This document shows, piece by piece, positions 2,085 through 46,979 of a stretch of 64,000 nucleotides of DNA (the first letter of the stretch is position 1; every line of letters starts with the position of its first letter). Both the position numbers and the translations under genes were made by a program. The notes beneath the pieces are model-generated. The model made no database searches. It was not told where the DNA came from and worked only from the letters and a program-made list of their open reading frames with translations. Source of the DNA: Escherichia phage vB_EcoM_G2540-3; sequence record MK327944.1. One strand, given 5' to 3'.

Positions 2085-2576
2085 ATGTTTGTAGATGATG
2101 TAACACGAGCGTTTGAATCTGGTGATTTTGCTCGACCTAACTTATTCCAAGTAGAAATTTCTTATCTTGGACAAAATTTTACGTTTCAATGTAAAGCCAC
2201 TGCTTTACCAGCTGGTATTGTAGAAAAAATTCCAGTCGGATTTATGAACCGTAAAATTAACGTAGCAGGCGATCGTACATTCGATGACTGGACTATTACA
2301 GTAATGAATGATGAGGCGCATGATGCACGCCAGAAGTTTGTTGACTGGCAAAGCATTGCTGCTGGGCAAGGAAACGAAATTACTGGTGGAAAACCAGCAG
2401 AGTATAAAAAGAGTGCTATTGTACGCCAATATGCTCGTGACGCTAAAACTGTAACAAAAGAAGTCGAAATTAAAGGCCTGTGGCCTACTAACGTGGGTGA
2501 ACTTCAGTTAGATTGGGATTCAAACAATGAAATCCAAACCTTTGAAGTAACTCTCGCTCTCGATTATTGGGAATAA
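2085..2576 (+). CDS. 19: tail tube protein gp19
   Basis: 163 aa; MFVDDVTRAFESGDFARPNLFQVEISYLGQNF... matches T4 gp19. Confidence 0.95.
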   Translation: MFVDDVTRAFESGDFARPNLFQVEISYLGQNFTFQCKATALPAGIVEKIPVGFMNRKINVAGDRTFDDWTITVMNDEAHDARQKFVDWQSIAAGQGNEITGGKPAEYKKSAIVRQYARDAKTVTKEVEIKGLWPTNVGELQLDWDSNNEIQTFEVTLALDYWE

Positions 2577-2608
2577 AATGAATGGGGAGAAATCCCCATC
2601 CTGCTTAA

Positions 2609-38215: not shown

Positions 38216-39803
<1,588 letters not shown>

Positions 39804-39830
39804 AATAAAATGGGCCTTGCGGCCCACTCC

Positions 39831-40333
39831 TTAAAAGTATTTTTTAAAACTCATCATAACTTTATCATCAACATCATTATCAATCTGTGCAACAAGGTAA
39901 GATGACAGTTCTACTTCTTGTGGCGCGGATTGAACATTATCAGAATTAAGATATTCACGAATCCAAGGATATGGATGTTTAACCGGAGCATCGGTAATTG
40001 GGCATGGAAGACCGCACTGTTTCATACGAGATACAGTTAAGTAATCAATAAAGCTCCACATGCTATTTGTATTTAATCCAGGAACATCACCATCTTTAAA
40101 TAAATGAACTGCCCAATCTTTTTCTTGGCGGTTAACTTCCATGAAAATATCAACTGCTTCTTGTTCACACTCTTGAGCAATTTTAACCCATTCATCGCCA
40201 TCAGTGCCAAGTTGAAGTTGACGAATAATATATTGAGTGCCTTTAAGGTGAAGCTGCTCATCACGTGCAATGAACTTCATAATCTTGGCATTACCTTCCA
40301 TGATTTCCATATTCTTGTGGAAGTTAAAGGTAC
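39831..40333 (-). CDS. nrdB: ribonucleotide reductase small subunit NrdB, exon 2
   Basis: MEGNAKIMKFIARDEQLHLKGTQ... continues the exon 1 product; 3' splice site inferred after ...GAACAUAACG. Confidence 0.7.
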
Positions 40334-41424
40334 CGTTATGTTCGATTGAGCTCGCTAATTCTCAACCCGTTCTCTTATGAACTGCTACATATTACTATGC
40401 AGACCAGACTATATCACAATCCCAGAGGGATTCTCCCCATTTCGAGTCGCTTGACCCTACGTCCGAAGACTAGTCGTTGAACCTTGCTTTGCAATTGTCG
40501 CCGTGCCATCGTTTATATGTTGATGGTGATAAATCTTTCTTATCACAATATGGACAATTCAATTGAATTCTATTTGGATTTAATTTACATCTGTCATTAT
40601 GTTTTAGATAAAATCCAGGACCTTTACCAATGTGACCGCAGAAATCACATGTGATTTCTTTTTGTGCAGGATGGGTCCCGTTCTTAACCATTTCTAATGT
40701 TTTTGCTGATGTTCTTTTCTTATGGTCTTCTGACAAGAAATGATGTGAACTGTCATTTACCCGTTTTGATTGAGTTTCTGACTGCATTTTACCACCGCAA
40801 AATACATGAGTACCTTCTTTTATAGCTGCAATATTGCGTTCTTTAACTTTTGCAATATGCTCAGCTTGTTGAAAATTATGTATACCTAATGCAACTCTAT
40901 TTAAATTAGATTTACGCTGTATTTCACCGTCTAAAAGATGAAATGTACCATTTTCTATCTTAGATTTAATAGAGGCAATATTTTTAGCTCGTACTTCAGG
41001 GATATTAAAAATCTGGATTTCTCTAGATTTTGCGGCTTTAGAAGCTAATTCAGAAATTTCTTCAGGAGAATATTTCATTCTAAGCTTTATAGCATGACAA
41101 GCCTGGTAATCTTTTTGAGCTAAATGTATATCATAATGTTCCTGTATAGAAAGGCACATCAAATTATCTAAATCATTATTTTCACGGTTACCGTCTTTAT
41201 GATGGATTTCGTATGTTCTTCCATCGGAATCTTTAGGTATAGGTCCGTTAGCATCTATCCAAATTTTTCTATAGTTCAATTGTGCATCCTCTTAAAAGTA
41301 TAATCATATTTATATTATACTAATTAAAGGTGCAAGCAAAACCTTGGCTGCTAGTTTTCCTATAAAGGACTTTCCAGCAATTAAAGGAGTTTTCGATAAA
41401 CGTTACCGTTTAAAGGCGCATTTT
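40334..41424 (-). mobile_element. group I intron in nrdB carrying I-TevIII (about 1091 nt)
   Basis: Exon 1 frame stops at TAA right after ...YVSFA; 3' region shares core elements with the td intron; boundaries inferred by joining to give ...YVSFAC/TFNFHKNMEIMEGNAKI. Confidence 0.65.
40470..41279 (-). CDS. I-TevIII: intron-encoded HNH homing endonuclease I-TevIII, full length
   Basis: 269 aa; YEIHHKDGNRENNDLDNLMCLSIQEHYDIH HNH motif plus C-terminal Cys zinc-finger region; apparent TTG start. Confidence 0.8.
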   Translation of the reverse strand: MNYRKIWIDANGPIPKDSDGRTYEIHHKDGNRENNDLDNLMCLSIQEHYDIHLAQKDYQACHAIKLRMKYSPEEISELASKAAKSREIQIFNIPEVRAKNIASIKSKIENGTFHLLDGEIQRKSNLNRVALGIHNFQQAEHIAKVKERNIAAIKEGTHVFCGGKMQSETQSKRVNDSSHHFLSEDHKKRTSAKTLEMVKNGTHPAQKEITCDFCGHIGKGPGFYLKHNDRCKLNPNRIQLNCPYCDKKDLSPSTYKRWHGDNCKARFND

Positions 41425-42100
41425 ACGCAAAAGATACATAAAAACGAATAGCTTCTAAGGCATTAATAACGTGTAAACAGAGGTAAAGAGACTTCATTAA
41501 AGCACGTTTAGCTTCGGCTTCTTGTTTAATAGCTCGGTTTAAACGAAAGTCGGCATCAGGAGATTCTTTAGCTAGTTCTACAAATTCTTTAGCATTTTCC
41601 CATTCACGGGTTTTAACCAAGACATCATCATAATAACGTCCAATGGACTCAGCGCGTTTCATAATATCTTCATCTAATACAATCTCATCAAATACCTTTG
41701 ATGGGTCAGTATAAAGATTTCGCATGATATGAGTATATGAACGGCTGTGAATAGTTTCACTAAAAGTCCATGTAGCAACCCATGTATCAAGACTTGGGTC
41801 TGAAATTAATGACATAAGTACTGCAGACGGTGCACGACCCTGAATGCTATCCAAAAGTGATTGATACTTCAGGTTATTAGTAAAAATATCTTGCTGATAC
41901 TGAGGAAGCTTGTTAAATTGTGCAGCATCCATCATTAAGTTTACTTCTTCAGGACGCCAGAAAAATGACAACTGCTTTTCGGTTAAATCTTCAAAAACTT
42001 TATGACGTTGAATATCATAACGCGCAATACCAAGACCTGAACCAAAAAACATAGGTTCTTTTAAAACATCAACTGGATTTGTATTAAAAACTGTGCTCAT
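41425..42100 (-). CDS. nrdB: ribonucleotide reductase small subunit NrdB, exon 1
   Basis: MSTVFNTNPVDVLKEPMFFGSGLGIARYD...RFYVSFA; ATG overlaps the mobE-like stop (ATGA). Confidence 0.8.
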
Positions 42101-42831
42101 AAATTTTTCCTCTTTAAAATTCTGCCGTGTTTCCAACCTGGCGGTATAATATCATCTTTACCTATAAGCGTGCATTCACTTCCATTATTAATCCATTTCT
42201 TACCGCGGATTCCTTTATAATCTCTTGGTTTTATTTTGTCAAACTTTGCATCAAGTTGATATGACCATCTAAATCCATAAGCATATTGAAATTTACCCTC
42301 GGCACAATATTTGATATTTGACCCGTTTCCATTAACTGACCGGGACGCTGCCGCAATAGAGTGAAAGGTTTCTATGAAATCCCCATCTAATGAGAATTTA
42401 TGTATTTCTACAGATGGGCACGCATATCTATTCACGTTAGATACATGCTGTTTAGTTTCGTTTTTATGATGCTTGCCTAGCATCCCTTTAGGATGAGGAT
42501 TATTTTTCCAATATTTCTTAAAGAACTCAGAATTAGCTTTAGCAAATAATTTTCTGTGTAAGCTGTACAATCTGTTATTAATTCTATTGCCAGCTTTATC
42601 TGTTGCCATTAACGTTAACGCAGAGGCAAGACCAAAATGGCCTTCATTTATCTTACATAGTAATAGATGAGCTATAAAATGTTCTCTGGCTGTTAATTCA
42701 ACTAAATTTTCCTTATCATCAGAACCTCCCATACATTTAGGGATTATATGATGTGTCTCTTTATATTCTAGTAAAGATTCCCGAGCCTGAGCTCGGGAAA
42801 TTAGGTCGTTATAGATTTTTTGATAATTCAT
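42097..42831 (-). CDS. mobE: HNH homing endonuclease (MobE-like) wedged between nrdA and nrdB
   Basis: 244 aa; ETHHIIPKCMGGSDDKENLVELTAREHFIAH; start overlaps nrdA stop (TAATG), stop overlaps nrdB start (ATGA). Confidence 0.8.
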   Translation of the reverse strand: MNYQKIYNDLISRAQARESLLEYKETHHIIPKCMGGSDDKENLVELTAREHFIAHLLLCKINEGHFGLASALTLMATDKAGNRINNRLYSLHRKLFAKANSEFFKKYWKNNPHPKGMLGKHHKNETKQHVSNVNRYACPSVEIHKFSLDGDFIETFHSIAAASRSVNGNGSNIKYCAEGKFQYAYGFRWSYQLDAKFDKIKPRDYKGIRGKKWINNGSECTLIGKDDIIPPGWKHGRILKRKNL

Positions 42832-45963: not shown

Positions 45964-46979
45964 CATTATGTTCAGATAAGGTCGTTAATCTTACCCCGGA
46001 ATTATATCCAGCTGCATGTCACCATGCAGAGCAGACTATATCTCCAACTTGTTAAAGCAAGTTGTCTATCGTTTCGAGTCACTTGACCCTACTCCCAAAA
46101 GGGATAGTCGTTAGGCATTTATGTAGAACCAATTCCATTTATCAGATTTTACACGATAAGTAACTAATCCAGACGAAATTTTAAAATGTCTAGCTGCATC
46201 TGCTGCACAATCAAAAATAACCCCATCACATGAAATCTTTTTAATATTACTAGGCTTTTTACCTTTCATCTTTTCTGATATTTTAGATTTAGTTATGTCT
46301 GAATGCTTATGATTAAAGAATGAATTATTTTCACCTGAACGATTTCTGCATTTACTACAAGTATAAGCAGAAGTTTGTATGCGAACACCGCACTTACAAA
46401 ACTTATGGGTTTCTGGATTCCAACGCCCGTTTTTACTTCCGGGTTTACTGTAAAGAGCTTTCCGACCATCAGGTCCAAGTTTAAGCATCTTAGCTTTAAC
46501 AGTTTCAGAACGTTTCTTAATAATTTCTTCTTTTAATGGATGCGTAGAACATGTATCACCAAACGTTGCATCAGCAATATTGTATCCATTAATTTTAGAA
46601 TTAAGCTCTTTAATCCAAAAATTTTCTCGTTCAATAATCAAATCTTTCTCATATGGAATTTCTTCCAAAATAGAACATTCAAACACATTACCATGTTTGT
46701 TAAAAGACCTCTGAAGTTTTATAGAAGAATGGCATCCTTTTTCTAAATCTTTAAAATGCCTCTTCCATCTCTTTTCAAAATCTTTAGCACTTCCTACATA
46801 TACTTTATTGTTTAAAGTATTTTTAATCTGATAAATTCCGCTTTTCATAAATACCTCTTTAAATATAGAAGTATTTATTAAAGGGCAGTCCTACAATTTA
46901 GCACGGGATTGTCTACTAGAGAGGTTCCCCGTTTAGATAGATTACAAGTATAAGTCACCTTATACTCAGGCCTCAATTA
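45964..46979 (-). mobile_element. td group I intron (1016 nt) carrying I-TevI
   Basis: 5' end UAAUUGAGGCCUGAGUAUAAGGUGACUUAUACUUGUAAUCUAUCUAAACGGGGAACC on - strand right after exon 1 ...GGT; 3' end ...GGGGUAAGAUUAACGACCUUAUCUGAACAUAAUG. Confidence 0.9.
46111..46848 (-). CDS. I-TevI: intron-encoded GIY-YIG homing endonuclease I-TevI
   Basis: 245 aa; MKSGIYQIKNTLNNKVYVGSAKDFEKRWKRHFKDL... GIY-YIG domain, C-terminal zinc finger and DNA-binding region. Confidence 0.9.
   Translation of the reverse strand: MKSGIYQIKNTLNNKVYVGSAKDFEKRWKRHFKDLEKGCHSSIKLQRSFNKHGNVFECSILEEIPYEKDLIIERENFWIKELNSKINGYNIADATFGDTCSTHPLKEEIIKKRSETVKAKMLKLGPDGRKALYSKPGSKNGRWNPETHKFCKCGVRIQTSAYTCSKCRNRSGENNSFFNHKHSDITKSKISEKMKGKKPSNIKKISCDGVIFDCAADAARHFKISSGLVTYRVKSDKWNWFYINA

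Follow-up and report, generated by a model that had tools for sequence, protein, structure and literature searches.

In the window, by which we mean the whole stretch of 64,000 nucleotides of Escherichia phage vB_EcoM_G2540-3 (MK327944.1) that was analysed, the genes nrdA, mobE, nrdB, denA and rnlA follow each other in the same order as in phage RB3, and the coding sequence of nrdB is present in two pieces (Table 1). The upstream open reading frame (41423..42136, minus strand) opens at a TTG at 42136, the NrdB N-terminus MSTVFNTNP... being encoded from the ATG at 42100, and it continues to the C-terminal residues ...AIRFYVSFA, after which it is closed by a TAA at 41425-41423 that is composed of the last base of exon 1 and bases 1 and 2 of the intron. 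The downstream frame restarts at 40333 and reaches its stop at 39831 on the same strand. An insert of 1091 nt, with AAAATGCGCC as its first and GAACATAACG as its last bases, separates the two frames; this interruption after ...RFYVSFA at 40334-41424 of the minus strand had been proposed in the original prediction, and the coordinates could be confirmed. The mobE gene that precedes nrdB is an RB3-type allele (96.7% amino acid identity to RB3), and its stop codon overlaps the nrdB start in the sequence ATGA. Phage T4 has a shorter mobE followed by nrdB.1 at this position, and only the first ~105 amino acids of the window mobE product resemble T4 MobE (62% identity).

Table 1 Positions of the features of the nrdB locus and of the td intron in the window
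Feature	Position	Strand	Remarks
mobE, free-standing HNH endonuclease gene, 243 aa	42100..42831	-	between nrdA and nrdB; Pfam HNH and NUMOD1
nrdB exon 1	41425..42100	-	ATG at 42100; predicted spliced product aligns gap-free to intron-free NrdB
Group I intron, RB3-type, full length, 1091 nt	40334..41424	-	5' AAAAUGCGCC ... ACAUAACG 3'; terminal G at 40334
Ribozyme core, 5' half	41336..41428	-	P1, P2, P3 5' strand, P4, P5, P6/P6a 5' strands
P1	41425-41428 with 41416-41419	-	helix drawn on the window sequence
Hairpin P6b/P6c	41283..41334	-	CACCUUU pairs with the I-TevIII Shine-Dalgarno region
Operator-like sequence GCTTGCACCTTTAATTAGTA	41318..41337	-	matches the exon junction (homing site) GCGTGTACCTTTAACTTCCA at 14/20 positions
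T4 late-promoter consensus TATAAATA	41307..41314	-	exact match; consensus match only
Shine-Dalgarno AAGAGGA	41287..41293	-	7 nt 5' of the UUG start; same as in the RB3 annotation
I-TevIII ORF, 269 aa and stop, UUG start	40470..41279	-	aligned to both RB3 records
HNH catalytic domain, aa 4-48	41136..41270	-	Pfam HNH_3, 48.7 bits (cut-off 24.8)
Two zinc fingers CX2CX12-13HX3C, aa 211-231 and 242-263	40491..40649	-	regular-expression match
Ribozyme core, 3' half	40345..40492	-	P6a/P6 3' strands, J6/7, P7, P7.1, P7.2, P3 3' strand, P8, P9, P9.1, P9.2
nrdB exon 2	39831..40333	-	first bases GUACC; stop codon within
denA (endonuclease II)	39393..39806	-	directly downstream of nrdB; Pfam GIY-YIG, 29.4 bits
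td group I intron, 1016 nt	45964..46979	-	boundaries as known from T4
I-TevI ORF, full length, 245 aa, GIY-YIG	46111..46848	-	within the td intron

When position 41425 is joined in silico to 40333, a 1179-nt frame is obtained that reads ...YVSFAC/TFNFHKNMEIMEGNAKI across the junction and encodes a 392-aa NrdB with a full-length match to Pfam Ribonuc_red_sm (126.5 bits). This product is identical at 389/392 positions, with 0 gaps, to NrdB of the intron-free phage vB_EcoM_NBG2, where it is annotated as a single uninterrupted CDS of 392 aa. Likewise, a joined-exon query of 150 nt from each exon gives one ungapped alignment, with 98% identity, in intron-free T4-like phages such as vB_EcoM_NBG2 and ECML-134. 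The intron-free DNA is contiguous over the predicted junction (tcttttgcAtgtaccttt; the NBG2 DNA reads ...tcttttgcatgtaccttt... at this site), and the boundaries are therefore exact to a single base. Furthermore, the last exon base is T versus G for the last intron base, and the first intron base is A versus G for the first base of exon 2. Since the end bases differ at both boundaries, no other placement gives the intron-free sequence, and shifted splice sites were rejected because a move of one base at either boundary fails to yield it. The comparison with NBG2 thus bears out the splice sites that had been proposed from joining the exons. The ligated nrdB RNA is predicted to read UUUGCGU/GUACCUUU at the junction, with GCGU/GUACC at the boundary itself.

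Group I chemistry requires a U at the end of the 5' exon and a G at the end of the intron. At the nrdB locus, the end of exon 1, GCGU, pairs with intron GCGC in P1, with a U-1.G6 wobble, and the intron terminates in ...AACG; both the U-1.G6 pair and the terminal G are invariant in 7/7 alleles. A secondary structure from P1 to P9.2, including the P6b/P6c hairpin, was drawn by hand on the window sequence, and the pairs were counted on six distinct natural variants. With 89 proposed pairs in 17 helices, 99.8% of the 532 cells are standard pairs in these variants, as compared to 36-45% in a control in which the partners were slid by 1-3 columns. Compensatory double changes occur at nine pairs (three in P2, two in P9.2 and one each in P5, P6c, P7.2 and P9) and at none in any of the six shifted controls. 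Out of 500 shuffles, not one matched the observed pairing values. The helices P3, P4, P7 and P8, which are invariant or nearly so, are supported by conservation and by the Rfam alignment instead of by covariation. The strands of P7 are GACUA/UAGUC, and between P7 and P3' the extra hairpins of subgroup IA are found, P7.1 as GUC-UUCG-GAC and P7.2 as GGGUC-AAGC-GACUC, the compensatory change in the latter being from U-A to C-G. Against the background of the T4 introns, we take the subgroup to be IA2. The annotation of record AF158101 gives 'group 1A intron'.

A separate observation concerns position -2 of exon 1 (window 41426, minus strand), which is G (GCG-U) in 7/7 intron-containing alleles examined and which pairs with intron C7 in P1. 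The intron-free phage NBG2 has a synonymous A at this position (GCA-T). The G is consistent with co-conversion of the flanking exon during homing, or with selection for pairing in P1.

Use of Rfam at gathering thresholds on the whole 64-kb window gave 0 matches, the td and nrdB introns included. An E-value scan of the region did yield RF00028, with 33.9 bits (E = 1.4e-6) against a cut-off of 50 and for the 3' half only; the partial alignment covers the R element GGUUCAACGACUA, P7.1/P7.2, P3', P8, the S element GAUAUAGUC and P9. The ORF-less alleles of the same intron in phages vB_vPM_PD112 and DCP80 match the whole RF00028 model and score above the same cut-off of 50, with 68.6 and 74.1 bits, respectively. 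The two flanks of the PD112 allele share 98.9% and 99.0% of their bases with the window core, and the DCP80 core is ~90% identical. The nrdB intron remains below the threshold because the 785-nt ORF insert in the P6 extension breaks the model, and the gathering score of RF00028 is a detection threshold and no biological defining feature. Silence of Rfam as proof of absence was thus rejected after the E-value scan and the scan of ORF-less alleles. The Rfam scan had itself been suggested as a check on the group I core that was predicted in the insert: its default form returned nothing and, taken alone, would wrongly have seemed to speak against an intron, while the passing ORF-less alleles, the E-value match in the window and the covariation within P1-P9.2 bear the group I core out. 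Weak Rfam matches within the ORF, to rseX (E = 6.1) and ceN113 (E = 4.2), were set aside as chance.

The lack of a default Rfam match in the window, together with the two separate 'nrdB' fragments found in many automated annotations of related phages, could also be explained if the insert does not splice, in which case nrdB would be a pseudogene and the phage would use the ribonucleotide reductase of its host. We consider this extremely improbable, since all core helices are intact in a core that is ~99% identical to alleles passing RF00028, and since both exon frames are open and their joined product is 99% identical to uninterrupted NrdB, which is unexpected under decay. Moreover, the T4 version of the ribozyme is among the three self-splicing introns of T4 (PMC1865063). 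A group I intron of the IA2 type that splits nrdB is the reading that is supported.

The second group I intron in the window, that of td, has the boundaries ...TTGGGT/TAATTGAGGCC ... GAACATAATG/CTACCG. In agreement with the prediction that the two introns share their 3' end, two copies of the motif GAACATAAYG are present in the window, one at the nrdB intron's 3' end and the other at that of the td intron (45964..45973, minus strand). Both introns are built on one subgroup-type architecture, in which the endonuclease ORF loops out from the core, and they have similar R and S core elements and the same logic of a late promoter combined with a hairpin that sequesters the ribosome-binding site. 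They differ in the host gene and in the endonuclease, which is the GIY-YIG enzyme I-TevI in td instead of an HNH protein, and the identity between the two cores is only ~70% over ~100 nt.

Regarding the reading frame inside the nrdB intron, the 269-aa HNH ORF of the original prediction was recovered with a clear Pfam HNH_3 match (Table 1). Its last ~8 codons and stop codon overlap the P6a/P6 3' strands, J6/7 and the 5' strand of P7. The encoded protein is identical at 267/269 positions to I-TevIII in both RB3 records, with the same start, stop and place in the intron, and an alignment to the RB3 enzyme, proposed earlier as a search for inactivating lesions, revealed no frameshift, stop, truncation or loss of functional residues in the ORF. 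In RB3 I-TevIII, the HNH motif lies within the first 50 residues, the substitutions H26A, H27A, N39A and H48A abolish cleavage, and C211/C214 and C242/C245 in two zinc-binding fingers are needed for DNA binding (PMC1865063). All four catalytic residues (H26, H27, N39, H48) are kept in the window protein, and C211, C214, C242 and C245 are intact in fingers that lie within the DNA-binding and dimerisation domain. The comparison supports the view that I-TevIII of the window is full-length and orthologous to the RB3 enzyme, and the expectation of an RB3-like, intact allele probably holds, as judged from the defined catalytic and zinc residues. A PDB sequence search with I-TevIII gave no solved relative, the best match being a spurious one to glucosamine-6-phosphate deaminase (E-value 0.28). 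A Pfam match to FlgM at aa 74-114 (26.2 bits, cut-off 25) was also rejected as spurious, in view of its marginal score and the lysine- and serine-rich linker in which it falls.

The two amino acid differences from RB3 are of a different nature. Position 23 is Y in the window, S16, G2469 and SH_GT, which is the majority state elsewhere, and D in RB3, so that D23 of RB3 is the outlier. Position 177 is S in the window and G in all other copies; this S177 is private to the window and was not found in any of the 128 matching phage records, the best of which has 99.3% identity. It belongs neither to the HNH motif nor to the zinc fingers and is next to residue 178, which is itself variable (S to N in S16).

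The private G177S substitution, or poor expression from the UUG start, could mean that the intron still splices while its I-TevIII is dead or weakened, and that the element persists by vertical descent or by mobE-driven homing in trans, like the defective T4 intron. Such a course would suit the occurrence of S177 in no other copy examined and the intact RB3-type mobE (HNH and NUMOD1) immediately upstream, and T4 MobE is reported to act in trans to mobilise the non-functional nrdB intron (PMC2790892). However, the RB3 enzyme has protease-sensitive sites at 145-166 and 194 and a dimerisation region at 194-241 (PMC1865063), and residue 177 lies between these sites, outside the HNH domain, the fingers (211-263) and the dimerisation region; because of this location, inactivation by G177S is unlikely. 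The neighbouring position already varies in S16, the active RB3 enzyme is likewise annotated with a UUG start, and apart from G177S the ORF is the same as in widespread copies. An inactive or weakened I-TevIII is therefore regarded as very unlikely, even though we rate it above the loss of nrdB function, and an intact mobile element remains the preferred reading.

The region in front of the I-TevIII gene carries, as candidate motifs, all three of the regulatory features to be considered, namely a late promoter, a hairpin over the ribosome-binding site and an operator-like stretch. In T4, the intron ORFs have their own middle and late promoters, which were mapped within the introns; a stable hairpin sequesters the ribosome-binding site of I-TevI, of I-TevII and of I-TevIII on read-through transcripts, and an operator-like sequence that overlaps the promoter and resembles the homing site was proposed as a site of autorepression by I-TevIII (PMC2988022). 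The P6b/P6c hairpin of the window has a minimum free energy of -17.9 kcal/mol (z = -3.6), none of 200 shuffles being as stable, and all its pairs are conserved in 6/6 variants. The late-promoter consensus is positioned ~28 nt 5' of the I-TevIII start, in and just past the hairpin loop; in the window as a whole, this consensus was observed 18 times versus 9.3 expected. A scan of the region for sigma-70 promoters and terminators showed no enrichment over shuffles, which is irrelevant for T4 late promoters.

The intron DNA matches 128 phage records, 84 of them with a coverage of 80% of its length or more, at 98-99.8% identity. Among the matching records are RB3 (X59078, KM606994), RB5-RB10, phiD1, fPS-2, JK45 and Bp7, and the identity to RB3 and to many Tequatrovirus and Mosigvirus records is 99.6-99.8% over the full length, the values for RB3 itself being 99.6-99.7%. 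With an end-to-end match in RB3 and ~80 other phage records, chance is excluded; the full-length allele is already known, and at least 84 phage records carry it. A scan of IMG/VR with a 23-nt core motif returned one contig only. The nrdB intron of RB3 with its I-TevIII was reportedly described by Eddy and Gold in 1991, X59078 being the original record of that year. The enzyme was characterised by Robbins et al. 2007 (PMC1865063). In the RB3 genome (KM606994), the gene, the insertion site, the intron length of 1091 nt, the ORF position, the UUG start and the length of 269 aa are the same as in the window. The record describes nrdB as a two-piece join that spans 2270 nt, as it does here, with 'I-TevIII: homing endonuclease' inside, and mobE and denA are the upstream and downstream neighbours. 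The window, which is from a Tequatrovirus, is ~96.3% identical to the RB3 genome over 24 kb, and we are thus dealing with a different Tequatrovirus isolate that carries the same element, not with RB3 itself.

A more distant match was observed in the marine Pseudoalteromonas phage pYD6-A (NC_020849, Schitoviridae), in which a split 'ATPase' gene holds an intron. Positions 2507..2587 of this phage are 87.7% identical over 81 nt to window positions 40336..40416 (minus strand). The matching region is the 3' domain, with the P7 3' strand, P9, P9.1 and P9.2, and the remaining part of the intron has no detectable similarity. As far as the nucleotide alignment goes, the likeness is unexpectedly close for introns of unrelated phage families and hosts.

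Multiple alignment reveals four natural size classes at one insertion site: full-length introns of 1091-1093 nt (window, RB3, S16), the T4 intron of 598 nt, the SG1 intron of 420 nt, whose deletion is larger and not that of T4, and ORF-less introns of 304 nt (vB_vPM_PD112) and 309 nt (DCP80). The original prediction had named a shorter T4 intron with a truncated I-TevIII, and this agrees with the records: the T4 intron is without 493 nt, corresponding to about positions 210-702 of the window intron, so that the HNH domain is lost, and the remaining 97-aa ORF starts from an AUG in another frame and returns to that of I-TevIII for the zinc-finger C-terminus. T4 records match 56% of the query, and the gene is annotated as 'I-TevIII homing endonuclease (defective)'. 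The insertion site is the same as in the window, the ribozyme core is ~98% identical over the common parts, and the late-promoter and hairpin region is the same as well. The insertion site and the ribozyme core are also shared by the ORF-less introns of PD112 (Tequatrovirus) and DCP80 (Gaprivervirus) and by the partly deleted intron of SG1.

The way in which the endonuclease gene may have been lost can be considered from the sequences at the junctions. Two direct copies of the 7-nt sequence ACAATTG border the I-TevIII gene in the window (41277..41283 and 40492..40498, minus strand), and they correspond to intron positions 142-148, with the UUG start within, and 927-933. Exactly the 785 nt between the ACAATTG copies are missing from the PD112 and DCP80 introns. 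The T4 deletion junction has a 4-nt microhomology, CATA, within the imperfect repeats GAAGAACATA/GAAGACCATA. Such repeat and microhomology junctions suggest that the endonuclease gene may have been lost by a slippage type of deletion. The endonuclease gene might also be a discrete cassette that enters and leaves the P6 loop at ACAATTG, with the ORF-less introns as an old, independently circulating 'empty' lineage, which we find rather unlikely. A better fit than the cassette is a deletion mediated by the repeat, within the cycle of gain, decay and loss that is usual for homing endonucleases.

Taken together, we estimate a probability of about 95% that the insert is the RB3-type, mobile form of the group I intron in phage nrdB, and no feature of the sequence speaks against this reading. 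The proposed working would be as follows. The nrdB transcript would fold as a group I ribozyme of the IA2 type, from which the 785-nt I-TevIII segment loops out at the P6 extension, and self-splicing initiated by guanosine would join ...GCGU to GUACC..., giving an mRNA for the 392-aa NrdB. On the read-through pre-mRNA, the I-TevIII ribosome-binding site would be locked in the hairpin, while transcripts from the intron's own late promoter would be without the 5' arm of the hairpin and could be translated. The intron ORF is predicted to encode an endonuclease of the HNH type that has two zinc fingers at its C-terminus. RB3 I-TevIII works as a dimer and leaves 2-nt 3' overhangs, cutting 14/16 bp upstream, and the RB3 intron is mobile in an I-TevIII-dependent manner, with homing more than 40-fold over that of the T4 intron (PMC1865063). 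Around the insertion site, the 30 nt of exon 1 directly upstream are identical to those of T4 and RB3, and the first 30 nt of exon 2 have two synonymous differences. Repair templated by the intron-containing genome would then copy the intron into the recipient, and the phage's own allele would be spared from cleavage since its recognition site is interrupted by the intron. For vB_EcoM_G2540-3, we infer self-splicing and late expression, and likewise cleavage and homing, from published work on T4 and RB3 and from the near-identity of the element to those studied.

The importance of the finding is slight beyond correct annotation. A default Rfam/Infernal scan overlooks both group I introns of the window because each of them holds an endonuclease gene inside a loop. 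In many public T4-like genomes, the nrdB exons appear as two genes, each named 'ribonucleotide reductase beta subunit', and I-TevIII is called a 'hypothetical protein'; such annotation of the locus is erroneous in a systematic way. In the window, the correct annotation for nrdB is a single spliced gene, with the join 42100..41425, 40333..39831 on the minus strand, instead of two fragments, and the internal ORF should carry the name I-TevIII.
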